Below are positions 29,875 through 39,519 of a stretch of DNA of 45,238 bases, one piece after another. The stretch's first letter is position 1; each line of letters starts with the position of its first letter. The DNA is from Kiritimatiellia bacterium (lineage in GTDB: Bacteria; Verrucomicrobiota; Kiritimatiellia; RFP12; UBA1067): positions 1-45,238 of the forward strand of contig JAFXST010000010.1 of assembly GCA_017525475.1 (NCBI GenBank), written 5' to 3'. The translations under genes were made by a program, and so were the position numbers. The notes under the pieces were generated by a model, which saw only the letters and a program-made list of their open reading frames with translations, was not told where the DNA came from and did no database searches.

Positions 29875-30610
29875 GCGACAGGAGAAGTTGTTCCACCCGG
29901 ACGGCGTCCTCGGGGGTGTCCACCCCGATGCCTTCGTCCTCGGTGCGGACGATCGCGATCTTGGCGCCCATGTAGAGCGCGCGCAGCTGCTCGAGCTTCT
30001 CGGTCTTTTCGAGCGCGCACTGATCCTCGCGGATGTACTTTTTGAGGAAGCCGCCCCGGTAGGCGTAGATGCCGAGGTGCCGCACGTAGAGCCCCGAGGC
30101 GAGATCGGCCTCGCGGTCGCGGTCGCACGGGATGGGGGCGCGGGAGAAGTAGAGCGCCATGTCGTTGGCGTCCATCACCACCTTGACCACCGTCTTGGCG
30201 TTGTAGTCGGCGAGCGTCCGGATGGGGGTTACGGCCGTGGCCATGGCGACCTCGGGATTGTCCCGGAGCTTGCCGACCAAGGCGTCGATGAGCGCGGGGT
30301 CGATCAGGGGCTCGTCGCCCTGGATGTTGACGAGAATGTCGTCGTCGGCGAAGTCGCCCGCCGCGCAGGCGATGCGATCGGTGCCGGAGGGCAGTTCCGA
30401 GGGCGTCATCGCCGCCCGGCCGCCGTGCGCCTCCACCGCCTGCACGATGCGTTCGTCGTCGGTGGCGACCAGCACTTCGTCGAGCGTCTTGGCCTTCTTG
30501 ACCGCCTCCACCACCCAGGCGACAAGGGGCTTGCCCGCCAGCATGGCGAGCGGCTTGCCGGGGAACCGGCTGGAGCCGAAACGGCTAGGGATTATTCCGT
30601 AGGTCTTCAT
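29867..30610 (-). CDS. kdsB: 3-deoxy-manno-octulosonate cytidylyltransferase
   Basis: IIPSRFGSSRFPGKPL, SGTDR, NIQGDEP, YFSRAPIP, HLGIYAY, EKLEQLRAL, GVDTPED. Confidence 0.97.
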   Translation of the reverse strand: MKTYGIIPSRFGSSRFPGKPLAMLAGKPLVAWVVEAVKKAKTLDEVLVATDDERIVQAVEAHGGRAAMTPSELPSGTDRIACAAGDFADDDILVNIQGDEPLIDPALIDALVGKLRDNPEVAMATAVTPIRTLADYNAKTVVKVVMDANDMALYFSRAPIPCDRDREADLASGLYVRHLGIYAYRGGFLKKYIREDQCALEKTEKLEQLRALYMGAKIAIVRTEDEGIGVDTPEDAVRVEQLLLSRA

Positions 30611-32684
30611 TTGCCTCCACCTTTACTTTCATGAAAAAGATTCTGCGGTAGATCTCGATGCGGCGCAGCTGGCGCTCGAGCGACCATATGACGAACCGCC
30701 ACTTGCGGGCGAAGTTGAAGTGCCGCGGCAGGCGCGGATCGAAATTCTCGAAGCGTTCGCGCATGGTCGAGAGCTGCCAGGCCATGGCCTGCGTGCGGAA
30801 TTCGAAGCCCTCCATGAAGCGCTCGGCGAGGTCGTGCATGCCGACCTTGTGCTTGCGCTGGAACAGCTTGAGGCTGTGCGCGTAGAACCCCATGTAGTAG
30901 TTGGCCATGTTGCGCAGATTGTCGTCGGTGAAGTCGAGGCACGGCCAGCCGAACGCCCCGCGGATCGAGCACGTGGCCACCGCCTTGGGCATGATACGCT
31001 GCTGCATGTTGTTGTATTCGAACTCGTAGATTTCCTTCTCGCCGAAGAGCGGCGTTTCGGTGGCGGGGTCGAACTTCTTCATCACCATGTTCTGCGCCGC
31101 GGCGTCGCCCATCAGCATGGCGAGCGCCAGCACGGCCTCGGTCTCCTCCACGTTGGAATCCTCCATGGAGGTGAAGTAGTTGGTGGGGATCGACTCCACC
31201 GGCTCGCCCTCGCAGCGCGAGCGGATGTAGTAGTCGAGCGGGCGGCCGTTGAATTCGCCCCGGCGCCTCAGGAGCATGTACCACGGCAGGTTGACCCCCA
31301 GCGCCTTCAAGGCGCCGATGCGCGCGATCACGTACTGCCCGTAGCCGCGCTGGCGCTGGGTGATGCGCTTTTCGATGAGCGAGGCCTGCAACGGGCGGAC
31401 GTTGGTGGTGTACACCACCTCGCGCGTCTTGCCGCACCCCACCTTGACCTCGGTTTCGTCGCCCTTGGTGTGGAGCTCGTAGACGTTGACCGAGGTGAGG
31501 ATCTCATCCTTGGAGAGGATGATGCGCAGGTTGGAAATGAGGATCTTGGTGCGGTCGTCGATGCCGGGATGGAACGTGGGCACGCCGTTGACGTAGGTGG
31601 CGCCAGGCAGCGCGGTGCGCCGGTCGTCGAAGGCGAGCGACGAGCCGTCGCCCACCACCGAGTAGATCTCGCCCGAGACGTGCATGTACAAGGCCTCGAT
31701 GAAGGCGTGCGAATTTTCGTCGCTGAACTCCGGCTGGGTCAAAAGCGACTCGTAGAGGCTCACGATGCCGCCGATGCGCTTGACGATATGGTCCTGCGCG
31801 ATCTTGGCGATGACGATCGACTCCATGAGCTTGTCGAGCTCCGGGACGATGCGGTCCATGCCCACGCCGCGCGCGAGGCCGAAGAGCTCGATCTCGTGGT
31901 GGCCGCGGTACTTGGGCATGCGCACGAACGAGTAGCGGTTGCCCTCGTGCACCGCCACCATTTCCTTGAGCGCCTCCACGAACTTGGGCAGCTTCTCCGG
32001 GTCGGCGGCGAGCGCGGCGAACTTCTTGAACTCGGGGAAGGTGAGGAAGTGCACGCCGCGCGAAGAGTGGTAGTACCTCAGTTTGCTCGCGATGCGCTTC
32101 TTGGACGCTTCGAGCGCGAGCTTCATGCCCGACTCGGTCCAGGCGAGCGGCTTGACGCGCCACTCCTGCCCCAGGGCGCGGTAATGGTCGAGCGTGATCT
32201 CGTTGCGGTCGAGCATGATAATGTCGTTTAGCGCGAAATCGCCGACCTTGAGGAGCCATTCGTCCGAGAGGAACAGCTGTTTGCTCGCGACGTCGCGCTG
32301 GGAGATCTCGAGGACGTCGTTGACGATGTTGGCGCACAGGACGTGCTTCATGAGCGCCTCTTCGCGCTGCTCGGGCTTGAGATGCGACAGCCGCCAGAAC
32401 CGCCCGTCAAGGACGGGGAAGGCCGCCACCGAATGGTTGCCGGTGGTGACCGTCATCACCATGCCCTTCTGGCGCCGGGTGAGGTACTCCTTGGGGATGA
32501 TCAGGACCGAGGGCCTGACGGACAGGTGATTGTGGATGCCGTCTTCGAGGATGAAAGTATCCTCGCCGATGTCGTAGGCCTTGAATTTGCGCTCCCGGCC
32601 CATGGCCACGGTCTTGACCACGGTACTGCGGCGCGTGCCGGTTTTGCGGATGCGCGCGAGGAACGAGCGGTAGCGTCTACCCAT
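30585..32684 (-). CDS. Hypothetical protein, 699 aa
   Basis: Long ORF with strong GC3 bias that fills the operon gap exactly and overlaps both neighbours; no family recognised. Confidence 0.8.
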   Translation of the reverse strand: MGRRYRSFLARIRKTGTRRSTVVKTVAMGRERKFKAYDIGEDTFILEDGIHNHLSVRPSVLIIPKEYLTRRQKGMVMTVTTGNHSVAAFPVLDGRFWRLSHLKPEQREEALMKHVLCANIVNDVLEISQRDVASKQLFLSDEWLLKVGDFALNDIIMLDRNEITLDHYRALGQEWRVKPLAWTESGMKLALEASKKRIASKLRYYHSSRGVHFLTFPEFKKFAALAADPEKLPKFVEALKEMVAVHEGNRYSFVRMPKYRGHHEIELFGLARGVGMDRIVPELDKLMESIVIAKIAQDHIVKRIGGIVSLYESLLTQPEFSDENSHAFIEALYMHVSGEIYSVVGDGSSLAFDDRRTALPGATYVNGVPTFHPGIDDRTKILISNLRIILSKDEILTSVNVYELHTKGDETEVKVGCGKTREVVYTTNVRPLQASLIEKRITQRQRGYGQYVIARIGALKALGVNLPWYMLLRRRGEFNGRPLDYYIRSRCEGEPVESIPTNYFTSMEDSNVEETEAVLALAMLMGDAAAQNMVMKKFDPATETPLFGEKEIYEFEYNNMQQRIMPKAVATCSIRGAFGWPCLDFTDDNLRNMANYYMGFYAHSLKLFQRKHKVGMHDLAERFMEGFEFRTQAMAWQLSTMRERFENFDPRLPRHFNFARKWRFVIWSLERQLRRIEIYRRIFFMKVKVEANEDLRNNP

Positions 32685-34311
32685 GATGGTGCTCCCCGCA
32701 ACGGCAATGGCCGCCGTGATGGTGGTGGCGGGCGTGCTCCTTGGCGATCAAAGTTTCGGCAAATCCCGCCAGCGCGTCCATGCCGGCCTCGTCGGCGACT
32801 TCGAGGAGGTTGACGAGCGCAGGTTCGACGTACTTGCAAAAGCCGTGCTGCCCCACCGAGGCGAGCCGCCCGTAGGCCCCGAGGCACTGGACGAGCCGCT
32901 GGCAGGCGGCATAGGGGAGCGCCTTCAAGATGCCGTCGTTGCCCGAGGCCTTGGCGTAGAGTTTGGCGAGCGCGCGCCGCTCGCCCGCGCCGAGTTCGAT
33001 ATAGGGATCGTACAGGAGCGAGGCGAGGTCGTAGGCGGCCGGGCCCTTGCGCATGCCTTGGTAGTCGATGATCGCCAGCTTGCCCTCGCCATCCCAGAGG
33101 ATGTTGGTGGACTGGAAATCCCGGTGGACGAGCGCGAGCGGCAGTTTGGAGAGGAACTCCGCGATCTGCCCGAGCTCCGCCGCCACCGCAGGCGGCATTT
33201 CCAGAAGAAAGCGCGAGTTGAGGCAGTGCTCGGCGAAAAGACTATGCTCCCAGGTGTAGAGCTCGCGGTCGAACGGCTTTTCGAGTTCGAGTTCGCCCGT
33301 ATCGAGCGCGTTGAACTTGGCGAGCGTCTCCACCACCTTGACGTAGCGCTCCAGGGTAAAGCCGCTTTCGCCGGCGTAGCCGAGGGCAAGCGTCTTGTCG
33401 GCGGGCAAATCGAGCTTTAACTCGGGCACCGGAATGCCGGCGGCCGCCAAGAAGCGGGTATGCCCGGCGTAGCGGGCGTTTTCGGGCCGCTTGGCGTCGT
33501 CGTAGACGATGATCACGCTGTTGCCGGTGCGGAAGAAGCAGCGGTCGGAGCCGCGCGCGCCCAGGAATTTCAGGCCTGTCAGATCGAGCCCCACCGCGGC
33601 CGCCTTGGCGAGCTGCGGAATGGCGGCGAAGGCGTTGTCGCCCTGATCCTCGTTGACCGCCATATAGGATTCGATCGTGCCCGCGTCGGTCCACAGGAGG
33701 CCGTCGAGTTCCTCGGCCTTGACGAATTTGCCGTCCATCATGGCTTTTTCGTAGGCCTCGATGATCGACGAAAAGCCCGCGGGCGCGACATAGTCCAAAA
33801 TCCCGTTCTTGAGCGCCGCGATACCAAGATAGGTATAGGTGCCGTTGTAGCCGGGATCGGGGCTTTTCCAGCAGGTTACGAAGCCGCTTTCGGGCTCGAC
33901 TTCGACGGTGCGCGGCCCGAGCGTGGAGCTGACGAGCGCCGTGCCGATGCTACCTTCGGGTATCTTGGGTTGCCACTTTTCGAGGCCGTCCACCACGATA
34001 TCGCCGTTGACGAGATAGAAGTCGTCGCCCGCGAGCCACTCGCGGAGCGGATTCAATACGCCGCCCGTGCCCAAAATCTCGGTCTCGAAACTGGTCCGGC
34101 AGCCGTTCGCGGCCGCCCACACGTCGACCTGCTCGTGCAGGTAGTGGCTGTTGACCGCGATTTCCTCGACGCCCAGCGCCTTGAGCGCGGCGACGATGCG
34201 CGCAACCATCGGCTCGCCCCAGACCGGCATCATCGGCTTGGGCACGGCGCAGGTGAAGGGCCTCAGGCGCGTACCGAGCCCGGCGGCCAGGACTACGGCT
34301 TTCTTGATCAT
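32677..34311 (-). CDS. Fused sugar-phosphate nucleotidyltransferase (MurU-like) + APH-family phosphotransferase (AmgK-like)
   Basis: N-terminal LAAGLGTRLRP.T..PKP, ILGTGG, NGD; C-terminal GSDRCFFR, HRDFQSTNI, IDYQG, YDLASLL.DPY. Confidence 0.88.
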   Translation of the reverse strand: MIKKAVVLAAGLGTRLRPFTCAVPKPMMPVWGEPMVARIVAALKALGVEEIAVNSHYLHEQVDVWAAANGCRTSFETEILGTGGVLNPLREWLAGDDFYLVNGDIVVDGLEKWQPKIPEGSIGTALVSSTLGPRTVEVEPESGFVTCWKSPDPGYNGTYTYLGIAALKNGILDYVAPAGFSSIIEAYEKAMMDGKFVKAEELDGLLWTDAGTIESYMAVNEDQGDNAFAAIPQLAKAAAVGLDLTGLKFLGARGSDRCFFRTGNSVIIVYDDAKRPENARYAGHTRFLAAAGIPVPELKLDLPADKTLALGYAGESGFTLERYVKVVETLAKFNALDTGELELEKPFDRELYTWEHSLFAEHCLNSRFLLEMPPAVAAELGQIAEFLSKLPLALVHRDFQSTNILWDGEGKLAIIDYQGMRKGPAAYDLASLLYDPYIELGAGERRALAKLYAKASGNDGILKALPYAACQRLVQCLGAYGRLASVGQHGFCKYVEPALVNLLEVADEAGMDALAGFAETLIAKEHARHHHHGGHCRCGEHHHG

Positions 34312-35117
34312 CGATACTGGATATGCTGGCGCGGATTGCGGTACTTGGGTTCCTCGAGGTAGAGCGAATACCACTGGTCGCCGAGCCCGCTGTTGCTGAA
34401 GTGCGCCGTCTTGTTGTTCATCAAAAGTTCGTGATTGCGCTTCAAGGTGGCGTCGTCCGACTTCTTGAGCGCCTCGGTCAGGGTTTTGAAGGCGCCGTCG
34501 AAATCCTGGCGCTGCACCTGCATCCACGACATGGCGGCGGCGACAAGCACGTTGCCGTTGTAGCCCGAGCGCCGTACGGCCTTGCGGTAGACCTTGGCGA
34601 TTTCGTCGAGGCCGGCGCCGTTCATGTACAGATGCGCCATCTTGATGGCGGCCATGGTGGGGTCGACGACCATCGCCTTGGGCATCAGCCGGTCGACCGT
34701 CTTGAACTCCTTGATCATCCAGTTGAGCTGCAGCTGGGCGGTGGCGATCTGCCGGTCGATGAGCGGCACCCAGAAGCGGTACTTGCGCAGCGTTTCCGTC
34801 TCGGCGATGGCCTCGCGCACGAACACCTTGGTGTCTTCGAACATTTCCTTCTGCGCCGCCTTCATGGACGACGGCGGGCGGGTCTGCCAGCGTTGCGTCT
34901 TTTCCTTGAGCTTGCGCTGGCCGGCTTCGAGGATGCGCTGGACCTTGGCCATGTCGGCCTTGACCTTGCGCTGCAGCACGAACCCGAGCCCCATCTGCGC
35001 GACGAGCAAGGCCGCCGCGCCCGCGAACACCGACCATCCCCGGCCGAAATCGAGGCCGTAGAACGCCCCCAGATACGCCAGCGCGCCGGCGAGAACCGCA
35101 ATTGCGAAAATTATCAT
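34308..35117 (-). CDS. Hypothetical membrane protein (2 N-terminal TM + helical/TPR-like domain)
   Basis: Two hydrophobic segments, then an amphipathic helical region; ATGA overlaps on both sides. Confidence 0.75.
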   Translation of the reverse strand: MIIFAIAVLAGALAYLGAFYGLDFGRGWSVFAGAAALLVAQMGLGFVLQRKVKADMAKVQRILEAGQRKLKEKTQRWQTRPPSSMKAAQKEMFEDTKVFVREAIAETETLRKYRFWVPLIDRQIATAQLQLNWMIKEFKTVDRLMPKAMVVDPTMAAIKMAHLYMNGAGLDEIAKVYRKAVRRSGYNGNVLVAAAMSWMQVQRQDFDGAFKTLTEALKKSDDATLKRNHELLMNNKTAHFSNSGLGDQWYSLYLEEPKYRNPRQHIQYR

Positions 35118-36751
35118 TTCCTGGTCTTTCTTTCGATTTCGACTTCGGTATCGAAGTCCTTGACGATGTTTTGCGCCATCTGCATGCCGCCCAGCGGCAG
35201 GCGCACGAAGCCTTCGTAGGCCTTGTCGCCCGCGAGTCCCTTGAGCGAGAACGCCACGGACTCGGGCTCGCCCTTGACACGCCCGATGATGTCCACGCTG
35301 TTGCCCTTGTAGAGGTTGCGGAGCAGGGTCGGGTAGGCCTCCGCCTCGGTGTCGGCGGCGAACACCACGCGCAGGTCGGTGAGGACCGGCTGCTTGAAGC
35401 GGTCGGAGAAGCCGTCGATGTCGTCGCCCGCGAACGCGCGGTCGCGGAAGAAGCCTTCGCGGTAGATCATCGACTCGCCGCGGTTGCCGCGGGTCAGCAC
35501 GTCGATGAGCTCGCGGTTGGCGCTGCGCTTGACGCCGTACATGTAGACGGAGATGAGCCCGTCGTTGAGCGCGGAGAACTGCGAGAGGATCTGCGCCGTC
35601 TGGGAAACGCCGGCGTTGGCGTCGCCGTCGGTGATGACGAGCGCGATGATCGGCCGCTTGGGGTCGCGCGGCAGCGTGAGCACCGAGCGGATCACCGAGA
35701 AGACGTCGGTCCAGCCGTGCAGGACGCGGTTGTCGATCCACTTTTCGGCGGCGTTGAAGCTATTGAGATTGCAGTCCTGCCAGGACGTGAAGGCGTACTG
35801 GAACTTGTCGCTGAACGCCACCACGTTGAAGCGATCGCCGGTGTTGGTGCCGTGGACGATGAGGCGCTTGATCGCATCCTTGACCGAACTCAGACGGTCG
35901 CGGCCGACCGAAGGCGAGGTATCGATGAGGATGACGATATCCTTGGGCACGATCGGCAAATCCGGCTTGGGCGTGAGCGTGACCCTGAAGTAGGTGTAGC
36001 CGTCCTTGACCTGCCGGAACGAAGCGAAGTCCACCGCCTCGGAGATTTCGATGGCCTCGTAGGAGTCGATAAGCTCCTTGACCGCCGATTTTTCCTGTTC
36101 GACCAGCGCTTCGTCGACTTCGGGCGCGACGAATTCGGCGGGGGTGAACTCGGGCTGCTTGTCCTTGACCAGCTTCTCCGGCTCCGACTCCTCGGCCGAC
36201 GAAAGCGACTCCTCCACCACCTCGAAATCGGGGGCCACGTCCTCGGGCGCCTCGACGGGATCGGTCTCCATGGCCAGCTCGATCTTGGGCGTGGGCTCGG
36301 CCTTGAACTCGGGCGGCTCGAAATACGCCCGCATCTCCACCGTCTGCTTGCCGGGCGAGAAGACGATCGGCGCCGACTCGAATACGGCCGGGGCCTCGAG
36401 GACGCGGTAGTTCTCGACCTCCCGGGTGACTTCGCCGGGCTCGGGCGCGGTCAGTTCGGCGTTTTCGTCGAGCGGGATGTGGTTCATGGTGCTCAGGGCC
36501 GAAAGCTTGAGGAGTTCCTCCTCGTTGATTTCGGGGGCGTCCTTCTTGGCCTGCTCGTCGTCCATGAGGCTCATCTCGGTGAGGTCGCCTTCGGGCACCT
36601 CCTCGCGCTTGACGGTATTGACGTGGCGGCTGACGCGGGCGAGCCCGCGGGCCACCGAAGTCATCACCTTGGGGCGCGCCCAGATCATCACGGCGATGTG
36701 CACGACGATCGAGACGATCAGCGCCACCAGCAGCACGTCCCTGCGGCTCAT
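35114..36751 (-). CDS. Membrane-anchored VWA-domain protein with TonB-like N-terminus
   Basis: TM with SIVVH; E/P-rich linker; VWA MIDAS IDTSPS..T..ITDGD. Confidence 0.88.
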   Translation of the reverse strand: MSRRDVLLVALIVSIVVHIAVMIWARPKVMTSVARGLARVSRHVNTVKREEVPEGDLTEMSLMDDEQAKKDAPEINEEELLKLSALSTMNHIPLDENAELTAPEPGEVTREVENYRVLEAPAVFESAPIVFSPGKQTVEMRAYFEPPEFKAEPTPKIELAMETDPVEAPEDVAPDFEVVEESLSSAEESEPEKLVKDKQPEFTPAEFVAPEVDEALVEQEKSAVKELIDSYEAIEISEAVDFASFRQVKDGYTYFRVTLTPKPDLPIVPKDIVILIDTSPSVGRDRLSSVKDAIKRLIVHGTNTGDRFNVVAFSDKFQYAFTSWQDCNLNSFNAAEKWIDNRVLHGWTDVFSVIRSVLTLPRDPKRPIIALVITDGDANAGVSQTAQILSQFSALNDGLISVYMYGVKRSANRELIDVLTRGNRGESMIYREGFFRDRAFAGDDIDGFSDRFKQPVLTDLRVVFAADTEAEAYPTLLRNLYKGNSVDIIGRVKGEPESVAFSLKGLAGDKAYEGFVRLPLGGMQMAQNIVKDFDTEVEIERKTRK

Positions 36752-38637
36752 CGGTTTTCCTCCAGTATGCGCTCGGCCTCGGCGGCGAACGGCGTCTTGT
36801 CGAACAGCGTGGCCACCACCGTGGCGTAGCCGCTGGCCTCCTCGCGGTTGTGCTTGCCGGCGGCCACCTTGGCGAGATTGAGATAGGCCTCCGCGCGCGC
36901 GAGCACGTCGTCCTTGTTGAGATCCACCGCCTTGACCAAAGTCTTGTGCGCCGAGTCGAAATCGCCGTTGTCGGTCTCGAGGACTCCGAGCCTAAGCATG
37001 GTCTTGGGCAGTTCGTCGGTCTCCACCAGTTCGTCGACCGCCCGGCGATAGGCGTCCATGGCCGAGCGGAAGTTGCTGTCGGCCTCCTCGATCTGCCCCA
37101 ATAGCGCATAGCCCGCCTGCCGCCATTCCGGCGTTTCCGAATCGATCAGCGCCTTGGCGCATTCGCGCGAGCTGATGAGCTTGCCGACCATGAACGCCTT
37201 CTTGGCCGACATCCGCGCGGCCGCGCCGTTGGCCACCAGCTCGCGATAGGCCGCCTTGGCCGTTTCGACGTTGCCGGCGTTGTATTCGAAATCGGCGATG
37301 ATGAGCTTGGCTTCGCGCGTCATGTCGAGCGAGAGCCCCGCCTCCAGCGCTTCCCGAAGGAGCCTTACGCCCTCCTCCTCGTGCTCGAGCTTGACCGAGG
37401 CGATGCCGCGCCAATACCGGGCCTCGGCCACGCGCCGCTGCTCCAGTTTGCCGTCGAGCGCTTCTTTTAGCGCCAGATCGGCGGCGTTCCAGCGCCCTTC
37501 GCGCAGGTCGACCATGGCCTTGAGGTACATGGCTTCGGCGGCTTCGCGGGTGCCGGGATTGGCGGCGGCGATGGCCGCGTATTCCCTGACCGCGTCCTCG
37601 AAGCGGGAGTTCTTTTCGTACGCCCACGCGAGCCGCAGATGATCGGCCGGGAGCGTGCTCAGATTGGCGGCGCGCTGGGCGGCGTCGACCAGTTTCTGGC
37701 GGTCGTCCGATTTTTCGGCCTCGTTGAACTCGAGCCGCGCGAGCGGCAGCTCCGCCTCGTTGCGGTAGCGCCCGGTGGGGTATTTCTGCAGATATTCGCG
37801 GAACTTGCCGAGCGCCAGCTCGTTCTCGGCGAGCGCATAGTGGGCGGCGGCCGCAAGGTAGACGGTGTCGTCGCTCTCCAGCCGCTGGCACAGGGCGAGC
37901 GTATCGGCGTACTTGTTCTGCAGGTAGTCGCACCAGGCGCAGATCCGGATGACGTCGCTCTTGTGCTTGCCGTCGGGGTAGCTCTTGAGGTAGCGGTGGA
38001 GGAGATTGCCGGCGTCGCGGTACTTCTTGTCGCTGTAGCTGGTGGCGGCCGCGAGGTAGAGCGCATCCTCGGAGAATTCGCTCTCGGGGCCGAACGCGAT
38101 GTCGGTCAAAAGCTGCACCGCGTCGCGCTTTTCCTTCTGGTCGCCCGAGGTGGCCAGGATGGAGGCGCGCCGTAGCTTGGCGTAGGGCGCGTACTTGCCC
38201 TTGGGATCGAGCCGGATCGACCGCGCCAGCTTCTCGGCGTCGTTGTTGGCGATGCCGAGATAATAGAGCGCCGCCGCCCGGATGTCGTTGGGCACCGAGT
38301 CGGAATCGAGGAGGAGCAGTTCCTCCTTCTGGCGGCCGGCGTCGACGGCGATGGCAGCCATCAGGCGCGAACGGGCCACGAACTTGGAGTTGGGGTGCTT
38401 CTTGACGAGCAGCGTGTAGATGCGCCGCGCATCGGCCGTGCGCCCCACCGCGCGGTAGCACTCCGCCAAGCGGAACAGGAGATCGTCCCGGACGGAATCG
38501 TCGCCCTTGTAGAGCGCCACGTATTCTTTGAGCGCGTCCTGGTAGGCGCCTTTGTTGAACAGCCGGTCGGCCATCGCCAGCCGGTCGGCGGCGGTGATGG
38601 TGATGGCGGCCAGCAACAGTCCGGCGAAAGCGGTCAC
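36748..38637 (-). CDS. Tetratricopeptide repeat protein (periplasmic, CpoB/BamD-like repeats)
   Basis: Repeated A.Y..A/YL..YP.G patterns throughout; GTG start overlapping the exbD stop. Confidence 0.88.
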   Translation of the reverse strand: MTAFAGLLLAAITITAADRLAMADRLFNKGAYQDALKEYVALYKGDDSVRDDLLFRLAECYRAVGRTADARRIYTLLVKKHPNSKFVARSRLMAAIAVDAGRQKEELLLLDSDSVPNDIRAAALYYLGIANNDAEKLARSIRLDPKGKYAPYAKLRRASILATSGDQKEKRDAVQLLTDIAFGPESEFSEDALYLAAATSYSDKKYRDAGNLLHRYLKSYPDGKHKSDVIRICAWCDYLQNKYADTLALCQRLESDDTVYLAAAAHYALAENELALGKFREYLQKYPTGRYRNEAELPLARLEFNEAEKSDDRQKLVDAAQRAANLSTLPADHLRLAWAYEKNSRFEDAVREYAAIAAANPGTREAAEAMYLKAMVDLREGRWNAADLALKEALDGKLEQRRVAEARYWRGIASVKLEHEEEGVRLLREALEAGLSLDMTREAKLIIADFEYNAGNVETAKAAYRELVANGAAARMSAKKAFMVGKLISSRECAKALIDSETPEWRQAGYALLGQIEEADSNFRSAMDAYRRAVDELVETDELPKTMLRLGVLETDNGDFDSAHKTLVKAVDLNKDDVLARAEAYLNLAKVAAGKHNREEASGYATVVATLFDKTPFAAEAERILEENR

Positions 38638-39047
38638 TGGTCTCCTTCGGTCGCGAGCGAGAAGTTCCACACGTCGGCCTCGCGGCAGGTGTCGATGACT
38701 TCGACCAGCGACTCGTACTTGACCTCCCGGTCGGCGCGGATGATGACCGGCTGCCCGGGATAGAACTTGGCGATCTTGGCGAGACGGCTCTTGAGCTCGG
38801 TAAGCGTCATGTCGCCGCCGTTGACCCGGATGCGGCCCTCGCGGGTGAGGTTGACGATGATTTCGCCCGGCAGCCGTTCGGGTTCCTGCGCGGTCTTGGC
38901 GTTGGGGAGCTTGATCGAGATCTCGCTTTCCCATTGCGAGAACACGCTGACCGTGACGAAGAAGCACAGCAGCAGGAAGATGACGTCGAGCATCGACGTC
39001 ATCGCCAGCGCCGGCGCGTTCGACTTTTTGTCAGTCTTGAATGTCAT
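38634..39047 (-). CDS. exbD: Biopolymer transporter ExbD/TolR
   Basis: MTSMLDVIFLLLCFF (conserved Asp), IKLP.A, VIIRAD..V.Y. Confidence 0.93.
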   Translation of the reverse strand: MTFKTDKKSNAPALAMTSMLDVIFLLLCFFVTVSVFSQWESEISIKLPNAKTAQEPERLPGEIIVNLTREGRIRVNGGDMTLTELKSRLAKIAKFYPGQPVIIRADREVKYESLVEVIDTCREADVWNFSLATEGDQ

Positions 39048-39519
39048 CGCAAGCCTCCTCGAGTTCGGCGATCCGCTTTTGGCAGCGGCGGCGGAGGAAC
39101 GCGTAGAACACCAGCGCGGGGATGGCCACCACCAGGCCGAAAATCGTGGTTACGATCGCCTGCGACACGCCTTGGGCGAGCACCACCGGCTTGGCGCCGG
39201 CCGAGACGTCGCTGGCGATGCCGCCGAACGCGCGGAACATGCCCAGCACCGTGCCCAAGAGCCCTACGAGCGGCGCGATGGCGGCCACGTCGGCCAGCCA
39301 GTCCACGGCGGCGAGCGCCCGGGCCGCGATCCGCCCGCCGGCCGCCGCGCGATCCTTGGCCGCGGCCACTTTGCGGTAGGACGATTTGAGGAACACGAAG
39401 CGGCTTTGCGTAACCCAGATGTACAGCACGACCGCCAGCGCAAACACGCTGATGCCCGCGAGTACCCACATCAGCGGGCCGCCGTAATTCCATGCCTGTT
39501 CGAACGTAATGTCGTTCAT
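39031..39519 (-). CDS. exbB: MotA/TolQ/ExbB proton channel protein (short)
   Basis: GGPLMW, APLVGLLGTVLGM..AF, GVSQAIVTT.FGL.VAIPA; SD AAGGAG. Confidence 0.92.
   Translation of the reverse strand: MNDITFEQAWNYGGPLMWVLAGISVFALAVVLYIWVTQSRFVFLKSSYRKVAAAKDRAAAGGRIAARALAAVDWLADVAAIAPLVGLLGTVLGMFRAFGGIASDVSAGAKPVVLAQGVSQAIVTTIFGLVVAIPALVFYAFLRRRCQKRIAELEEACDDIQD

Follow-up and report, generated by a model that had tools for sequence, protein, structure and literature searches.

A four-gene ExbB-ExbD, TPR and VWA cassette of a bovine-gut Kiritimatiellae bacterium: a probable proton motor coupled to an SxxxH-anchored VWA arm

Introduction

The question raised by contig JAFXST010000010.1 of a bovine-gut Kiritimatiellae bacterium (assembly GCA_017525475.1) is what an ExbB-ExbD motor might drive when the anchored protein encoded with it ends in a VWA (von Willebrand factor A) domain instead of the terminal domain of TonB or TolA. 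The whole stretch of DNA that was analysed, 45,238 nucleotides and hereafter called the window, carries a cassette of four genes in the order exbB-exbD-TPR-VWA. The last of these encodes a membrane helix with the SxxxH motif of the TonB and TolA helices, a long linker and a VWA head with an intact metal ion-dependent adhesion site (MIDAS). The answer that we favour, and consider likely, is that the cassette encodes an ExbBD motor coupled to an SxxxH-anchored VWA arm.

A preliminary description of the window had already proposed a motor whose transducer grips its target through a metal-dependent VWA head. The residues Ser14 and His18, the MIDAS and the synteny of the four genes across an order all strengthen that proposal. 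It is not new, since "vWA force transducers" were proposed in silico in 2025, with Tichowtungia aerotolerans, another Kiritimatiellota species, as the starting case (Mol Biol Evol; PMC12204202). The cassette belongs to that proposed class, an assignment made by the architecture that the paper describes.

The cassette and its gene layout

The four genes are the following:

39031..39519, minus strand: exbB/tolQ-like proton-channel subunit, 162 amino acids, a short form with three hydrophobic segments
38634..39047, minus strand: exbD/tolR-like subunit, 137 amino acids, single copy, with the transmembrane Asp in SMLDVIF
36748..38637, minus strand: TPR protein gene, 629 amino acids, GTG start
35114..36751, minus strand: VWA "transducer" gene, 545 amino acids, encoding a transmembrane helix, a disordered linker and a head formed by a VWA domain and a beta-sandwich

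The genes are tightly packed. The ATG of exbD lies inside the end of exbB (a 17-nucleotide overlap), the exbD stop and the GTG start of the TPR gene have GTGA in common, and ATGA is common to the TPR and VWA genes. The same ATGA joins the VWA gene to a downstream membrane protein gene, and this one to a murU/amgK-like fusion, all six genes from exbB to the fusion being read on the minus strand; the run of overlapping stop and start codons from exbB to the membrane gene, as first described, is thus present in the sequence. Upstream lie lepA and yidC, and 5 nucleotides separate the lepA stop from the exbB start. The cassette contains one exbD only.

Contigs from the bovine-gut RNA libraries of two studies map to the cassette with 95-100% identity, and some of them span the exbD/TPR junction (38500-38947, 38558-38926) and others the junction between the VWA and membrane genes (35007-35273). 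Such libraries can hold DNA and assembled contigs are no proof of a single transcript; they give only a weak hint that the cassette is expressed.

Architecture of the VWA protein

The elements of the VWA protein on which the argument depends are located as follows:

36677..36745, minus strand: transmembrane helix, residues 3-25, including LIVSIVVHIAV, with S14 at 36710-36712 and H18 at 36698-36700
36152..36676, minus strand: Glu/Pro-rich linker, residues ~26-200, in which most of residues 32-177 have a predicted local distance difference test score (pLDDT) under 50
35627..35923, minus strand: MIDAS, formed by D277-x-S279-x-S281 (35909-35923), T348 (35708-35710) and D375 (35627-35629)

An AlphaFold2 model of the protein, built on 124 homologues (mean pLDDT 81.8), gives residues 3-25 as a confident helix (block pLDDT 89-97) and is disordered from there to around residue 200. 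The head, residues 200-545, is again modelled with confidence; besides the VWA domain (271-450) and a beta-sandwich (455-519) it contains a hairpin and two helices, one of them C-terminal. The head is matched by the Pfam families VWA (53.5 bits), VWA_3 (40 bits) and VWA_2 (29.9 bits) over residues 271-429. Its top Foldseek match is ITIH1 (6fpy; E-value 6e-21), the protein also found with phmmer against the PDB (E-value 5.9e-10), and further structure matches include a bacterial VWA protein, the archaeal ArnB and integrin beta subunits.

The preliminary description had reported an intact MIDAS, and all five of its residues are present and conserved: in an alignment of 124 homologues that had been picked for having SxxxH (alignment A1), D277, S279 and D375 are found in 124 of the 124 rows, and S281 and T348 in 123. 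It had also described a single transmembrane segment carrying S-x3-H (SIVVH), followed by a Glu/Pro-rich linker of about 220 residues; this agrees with the positions of S14 and H18 and with a linker of 219 residues (27-245), 42 of which are Glu and 20 Pro. Directly after the helix, the motif RPKVMT (RPxVMT in the consensus of a second alignment, A2) is kept within the genus.

More distant homologues of about 580-670 amino acids (for example P0155, P0158 and P0176) carry the motif W-x-P-R-x-x-[IV] in the middle of the linker, some 110 residues past the helix. Its consensus in these proteins is WxPRxEI, and the strict pattern occurs in 44 of the 124 A1 rows. The motif is absent from the VWA protein of the window and from 25 of the 26 closest alignment representatives, down to an identity of about 34%.

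Conservation and specificity of the SxxxH motif

The invariance of S14 and H18 in alignment A1 is circular, because its rows were selected for SxxxH. Conservation was therefore counted in two other sets. An exhaustive search yielded 150 best representatives with mutual identities below 50%, of which 132 have at least 480 amino acids and were taken as full-length; 127 of these 132 have an N-terminal hydrophobic segment, and 125 have SxxxH within it. Of 10 clusters of distant representatives that were looked up, 2 bear a taxonomic label, and the labels are Kiritimatiellae and Verrucomicrobiota. The second set consists of 80 further close loci, the closest listed from public genomes, all of them gut or rumen assemblies of Kiritimatiellae type, found by a search with the 36-row alignment A2. 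SxxxH is present in all 71 of the loci with an aligned N-terminus, including those in which exbBD is not adjacent; the other nine, whose best match covered the C-terminal half only, were left unscored. The motif is, then, conserved in the homologues.

The genome itself provides a control. Among its 172 open reading frames (ORFs) of at least 200 amino acids with an N-terminal hydrophobic segment, SxxxH is found in two, the cassette VWA protein and a TonB-like protein encoded on another contig (C52), and each of them adjoins an exbB-exbD pair. The SxxxH match of the VWA protein is thus beyond chance.

A cleaved signal peptide was considered as another explanation of the N-terminus. The hydrophobic helix has about 22 residues, its polar Ser and His are conserved, and the residue that would occupy position -1 varies across the family (L, F, A, V or M). 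Judged by these features, cleavage of the helix is unlikely, and the signal-peptide interpretation was set aside.

The conserved unit

Gene order was scored by tblastn in 20 loci fetched from relatives; 8 of these loci belong to the genus, and the remaining 12 to families elsewhere in the order. The order exbB-exbD-TPR-VWA is found in 16 of them (7/8 in the genus and 9/12 in the other families), and for the 12 loci of other families Pfam agrees with tblastn. Among the 80 further loci, 70 have enough upstream DNA for the order to be judged: 48 contain the full cassette, 17 only the TPR and VWA genes, and 5 the VWA gene alone, so that the TPR gene adjoins the VWA gene in 65 of the 70. The homologues, in short, are mostly linked to exbBD. 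Where the cassette is split, the motor is not lost: in all four such genomes checked, exbBD orthologues are found elsewhere in the genome. In genome G019 they are 76-77% identical, and in G029 exbBD still lies with the TPR gene, 228 kb away from the VWA gene. At one relative locus (L017, G025:C109), a gene with an FRG domain (86 bits) is inserted between the TPR and VWA genes.

Two proposals drawn from the genes around the cassette did not survive this comparison. The 269-residue membrane protein encoded downstream had been counted as a fifth member of the unit; it is kept in 40 of 41 relatives, but only in the four closest loci is its gene found at the cassette; elsewhere it lies on a different contig or at a distance of 59 kb, which rules it out as a cassette member. 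Likewise, a role in protein export or envelope biogenesis had been suggested from the position near yidC and kdsB. The membrane gene and the yidC/lepA/kdsB context are common only to the 4 closest of the 80 loci, and flanking genes vary even within the genus, which makes this position uninformative on function. In the relatives, the upstream flanks include Lyase_1, gyrB, purH and glycogen phosphorylase genes, and the downstream flanks GH30, GH39, S49 peptidase, NAD synthase and other genes; no conserved outer-membrane or other partner gene was found in the flanks of the 20 loci. With the membrane gene unlinked and the flanks variable, the core of the system is reduced to four genes, and the TPR and VWA genes are its tightest pair.

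Motor subunits and TPR protein

ExbB scores 87.1 bits on Pfam MotA_ExbB, and ExbD 105.3 bits on Pfam ExbD; the sequences MLDVIF with its transmembrane Asp in ExbD, and GLLGT and VTT in ExbB, can all be read in the translations, as had been stated. ExbB reaches 62 bits on the NCBIfam model tolQ and 55 bits on exbB, both far under the equivalog cut-offs, and neither subunit attains any NCBIfam equivalog cut-off for tolQ/exbB or tolR/exbD.

The TPR protein matches many Pfam TPR families, as well as the BamD/YfiO and CpoB models. On TIGR02795 (tol_pal_ybgF) it scores 104 bits, with a cut-off of 90.1, as a sum over four stretches. A short hydrophobic stretch without a lipobox Cys, a probable signal peptide, forms its N-terminus. 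Prediction of a complex between TPR residues 20-629 and the VWA head (200-545), run with alignments for each protein and without controls, speaks neither for nor against binding (score 0.00, mark 0.32).

Other motors and Ton/Tol components in the genome

The genome assembly (1.3 Mb in 98 contigs, 83% complete), placed in the Kiritimatiellae by the names of close homologues, contains four MotA/ExbB loci. A TPR gene lies near every one of them. The VWA cassette, on contig C7, is one, and the others are:

C52:26173-33860 (locus L128): exbB-exbD-TonB-like, then an ORF whose BatD-like domain scores 26.7 bits, then two TPR genes
C41:13523-20718 (locus L127): TPR (1057 amino acids), a 252-residue protein, exbB, exbD, exbD and a 488-residue protein
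C30: TPR, exbB, exbD, then a 145-residue protein

The TonB-like protein of C52 has 320 amino acids, with SLLVH in its helix and a Pro-rich and Lys/Glu-rich linker containing PPPPPP and EEKPK repeats. Its match to TonB_C, at 19.7-21 bits, is under the threshold and is the sole weak TonB_C match in the genome. The 488-residue protein of C41 lacks SxxxH; its hydrophobic segment is internal, its linker acidic, and its C-terminal domain matches nothing in Pfam. This protein may be another kind of motor partner.

Whole-genome family searches confirmed that TonB_C, TolA_C, TonB-dependent receptors, tolB and pal are absent from the window: its contig has no match to TonB_C, Plug, the barrel of TonB-dependent transporters, TolA_C, OmpA/Pal or TolB. 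TolA_C (PF06519) has no match anywhere in the genome, whereas a Pal-like OmpA lipoprotein is encoded on contig C4 and a TolB-like propeller on C12 (199 bits against a cut-off of 343). Neither Plug nor the transporter barrel was found in the genome, which is 83% complete. A Plug domain is encoded by 33 of 41 relatives, and relatives for which no Plug match was obtained, such as G029 (99% complete), can have the VWA cassette as well. The presence of the cassette without Plug in relatives, together with the coexisting TonB-like system, implies that in this clade the VWA arm is not a replacement for TonB and does not rely on TonB-dependent receptors.

Comparison with known systems

The closest parallel is that of the vWA force transducers. 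These combine an N-terminal helix carrying the Ser and His of TonB/TolA with a linker that is disordered or proline-rich and a vWA fold at the C-terminus, and their genes lie beside tolQ/exbB-like, tolR/exbD-like and TPR genes in the same phylum; in AlphaFold3 models of that study, it is the conserved His through which the transducer helix docks on the motor (PMC12204202). The differences from that description are four. The cassette has one exbD instead of a pair of different tolR-like genes, and its TPR gene stands between motor and transducer, in the order exbB-exbD-TPR-VWA. Only the Ser and His of the SHLS motif are retained in its VWA protein, and a TonB-like protein is encoded in the genome, whereas the starting case of the paper is given as without a discernible TolA or TonB (PMC12204202).

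With TonB and TolA the VWA protein has in common a signal-anchor helix with S-x3-H, a long linker able to span the periplasm, a globular head and an operon containing a MotA/ExbB-family and an ExbD-family gene. Its head, in contrast, has about 345 residues and a MIDAS, instead of a strand-addition domain of about 90 residues, and the protein matched VWA families only in Pfam, without a match to TonB_C (PF03544) at E-values up to 0.01; no TonB-dependent receptor, tolB or pal lies near the cassette, the TolB-like and Pal-like genes being on other contigs.

The head itself is most similar, both in solved fold and in sequence, to ITIH1 and the VIT-VWA "sortase target" proteins (TIGR03788), which also have an integrin-like MIDAS. 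The match to TIGR03788 is partial (71 bits against a cut-off of 551.65; residues 236-516, profile positions 235-508), and Pfam finds no VIT domain in the VWA protein. Moreover, the proteins of this group are secreted or surface-linked, and neither anchored through SxxxH nor linked to a motor. Bat-type VWA proteins have a BatA-type N-terminal domain, and their operon also encodes a MoxR ATPase and a DUF58 protein; no BatA family match was obtained in Pfam for the VWA protein, and no MoxR or DUF58 neighbours are present in the window or the 20 loci.

The Agl-Glt machinery of Myxococcus, which the preliminary description had offered as a parallel, includes a TolQR-type motor, TPR proteins and a VWA protein, and its force transducers GltG/J are TonB-like, with TonB_C-type domains. 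The parallel holds for this list of components and is otherwise loose, since the VWA protein of Agl-Glt, CglB, is an outer-membrane lipoprotein (PMC9946355) and not a protein with an inner-membrane SxxxH anchor.

Proposed mechanism and alternative explanations

In the mechanism that we favour, ExbB and ExbD would assemble at 5:2 into an inner-membrane motor driven by protons, and the VWA protein would be held in the same membrane by its uncleaved N-terminal helix. With Ser14 and His18 as its contacts, this helix may dock at the motor's rim in the manner of the TonB and TolA helices, and the disordered, acidic and proline-containing linker of about 175-220 residues would cross the periplasm. 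The ITIH/integrin-like head, formed by the VWA domain and the beta-sandwich, could clamp an acidic residue of an envelope ligand by means of a divalent cation bound to the MIDAS, in such a way that motor activity would pull on the ligand or change its conformation. The periplasmic TPR protein, with its CpoB/YbgF- and BamD-like repeats, would be a constant partner, with the head, the linker or the ligand as its probable target; that it acts as a scaffold, as was suggested at the outset, is something we infer from gene pairing.

Several observations weigh against such a coupling. In 22 of the 70 judged close loci exbBD is not adjacent, which makes the linkage of the motor looser than that of the TPR gene, and the counted loci are kin and not independent samples. 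Three further exbBD loci and a TonB-like protein are encoded in the genome, so that the pairing of this motor with this arm is presumptive. Beyond the Ser and His, the SHLS motif is not kept (A25 and V29 occupy its L and S positions here, and the former is L in 40 of the 124 A1 rows); no linker strand is predicted in the monomer model, and a "motor box" strand, which the paper places in the linker of its transducers, is not identifiable with confidence. In PMC12204202, the function of the vWA force transducers is given as unknown and no deletion phenotypes are reported, and full-text literature searches found no experimental paper on such a system.

The pattern of linkage lends itself to the explanation that the VWA protein is a passive anchored protein, a periplasmic binder or scaffold of Bat or ITIH type tethered to the inner membrane and working with the TPR protein, and that the motor is a neighbour by co-regulation only. 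The pairing of TPR and VWA genes (65/70) is indeed tighter than the linkage to exbBD (48/70), the VWA gene stands alone in five loci, and the Bat genes are known as bacterial sets of membrane-anchored VWA and TPR proteins without motors. A Ser and a His kept at fixed spacing in a membrane helix, across proteins that are 20-30% identical, are nevertheless hard to explain without a helix-helix partner; SxxxH is restricted in the genome to two proteins encoded beside exbBD, and exbBD orthologues persist where the cassette is split. The protein has no BatA family match and the cassette no MoxR or DUF58 gene, all of which makes a passive role quite improbable. An Agl-Glt-type machine, with a motor-driven VWA adhesin that would serve to move over surfaces or to attach to substrates, is very improbable indeed. 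A gliding-like role is floated in PMC12204202, and the VWA adhesin CglB is used in Myxococcus gliding (PMC9946355), but CglB is an outer-membrane lipoprotein, while the present protein, which lacks a lipobox, has a TonB-like helix as its inner-membrane anchor. Other Glt-type genes, moreover, were not seen in the varied flanks of the 20 loci. In Myxococcus gliding, a TolQR-like motor and TPR proteins are found alongside CglB.

A divergent Tol-like system is a more specific version of the favoured explanation and does not contradict it. The cassette would then take on the task of Tol-Pal, to tether the outer membrane or constrict it when the cell divides; the TPR protein would be an analogue of CpoB/YbgF, and the VWA head would stand in for TolA domain III and engage a TolB- or Pal-like partner. 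The TPR protein exceeds the TIGR02795 cut-off and matches BamD/YfiO and CpoB, the motor scores slightly higher on the tolQ/tolR models than on exbB/exbD, Pal-like and TolB-like genes exist in the genome (C4 and C12), and the cassette is present in relatives in which no Plug was found, such as G029. However, the ybgF score may reflect the type of repeat only, because it is summed over four repeated TPR stretches, and no tolQ or tolR family cut-off is approached. In none of the fetched loci does a TolB-like or Pal-like gene adjoin the cassette, both being on other contigs of the genome, and the separate exbB-exbD-TonB/TolA-like locus of C52 could be the real Tol or Ton system. A Tol-like role is thus the most attractive specific guess; it rests on weak evidence, and we regard it as unlikely.

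A bolder extension of the motor-coupled VWA arm, which we consider doubtful, takes the TPR-VWA pair as the core, with ExbBD acting in cis or in trans, and the head as a metal-dependent "bacterial integrin", gated by the proton-motive force, that would catch and pull a ligand of the envelope or of an extracellular polymer. Import and outer-membrane tethering would then be joined by a third output of the Ton/Tol motor family. Its role would be peculiar to the Planctomycetes-Verrucomicrobia-Chlamydiae (PVC) group, for example in glycan or capsule handling or in remodelling of the envelope.

Neighbouring genes outside the unit

Three genes downstream of the cassette complete the description of this part of the window:

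34308..35117, minus strand: membrane protein gene, 269 amino acids
32677..34311, minus strand: murU/amgK-like fusion, 544 amino acids, single ORF
30585..32684, minus strand: ORF of 699 amino acids, between the murU/amgK fusion and kdsB

The 269-residue protein, which belongs to no Pfam family, starts with two hydrophobic segments and also has a helical domain of TPR-like type. Its look-alikes are small TPR proteins, and one structural match (template-modelling score, TM, 0.51) is to a YfgM/CpoB-type "ancillary SecYEG subunit" cluster; this likeness is a lead only. In the murU/amgK fusion, a MurU-like nucleotidyltransferase (residues 4-220) is joined to an AmgK/APH-like kinase (residues 259-453), which suggests a fused enzyme for the recycling of MurNAc/GlcNAc. 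The 699-residue ORF has no Pfam or NCBIfam match at E-values up to 0.01.

Implications

The kind of machine discussed here was already proposed in 2025, and the window does not add a new one. What it adds are facts about how the machine is put together: a unit of four genes, in which the TPR and VWA genes are the tightest pair and the motor can sit elsewhere in the genome, and for which one exbD suffices in this clade. The VWA system also coexists with a TonB-like system, and this coexistence indicates that it is not simply a replacement for TonB. If the class works as proposed, a Ton/Tol-type proton motor would drive a third kind of arm, whose hand would be an integrin-like, metal-dependent clamp instead of a strand-pairing domain, and the energy of the inner membrane would be put to wider use in the envelope.

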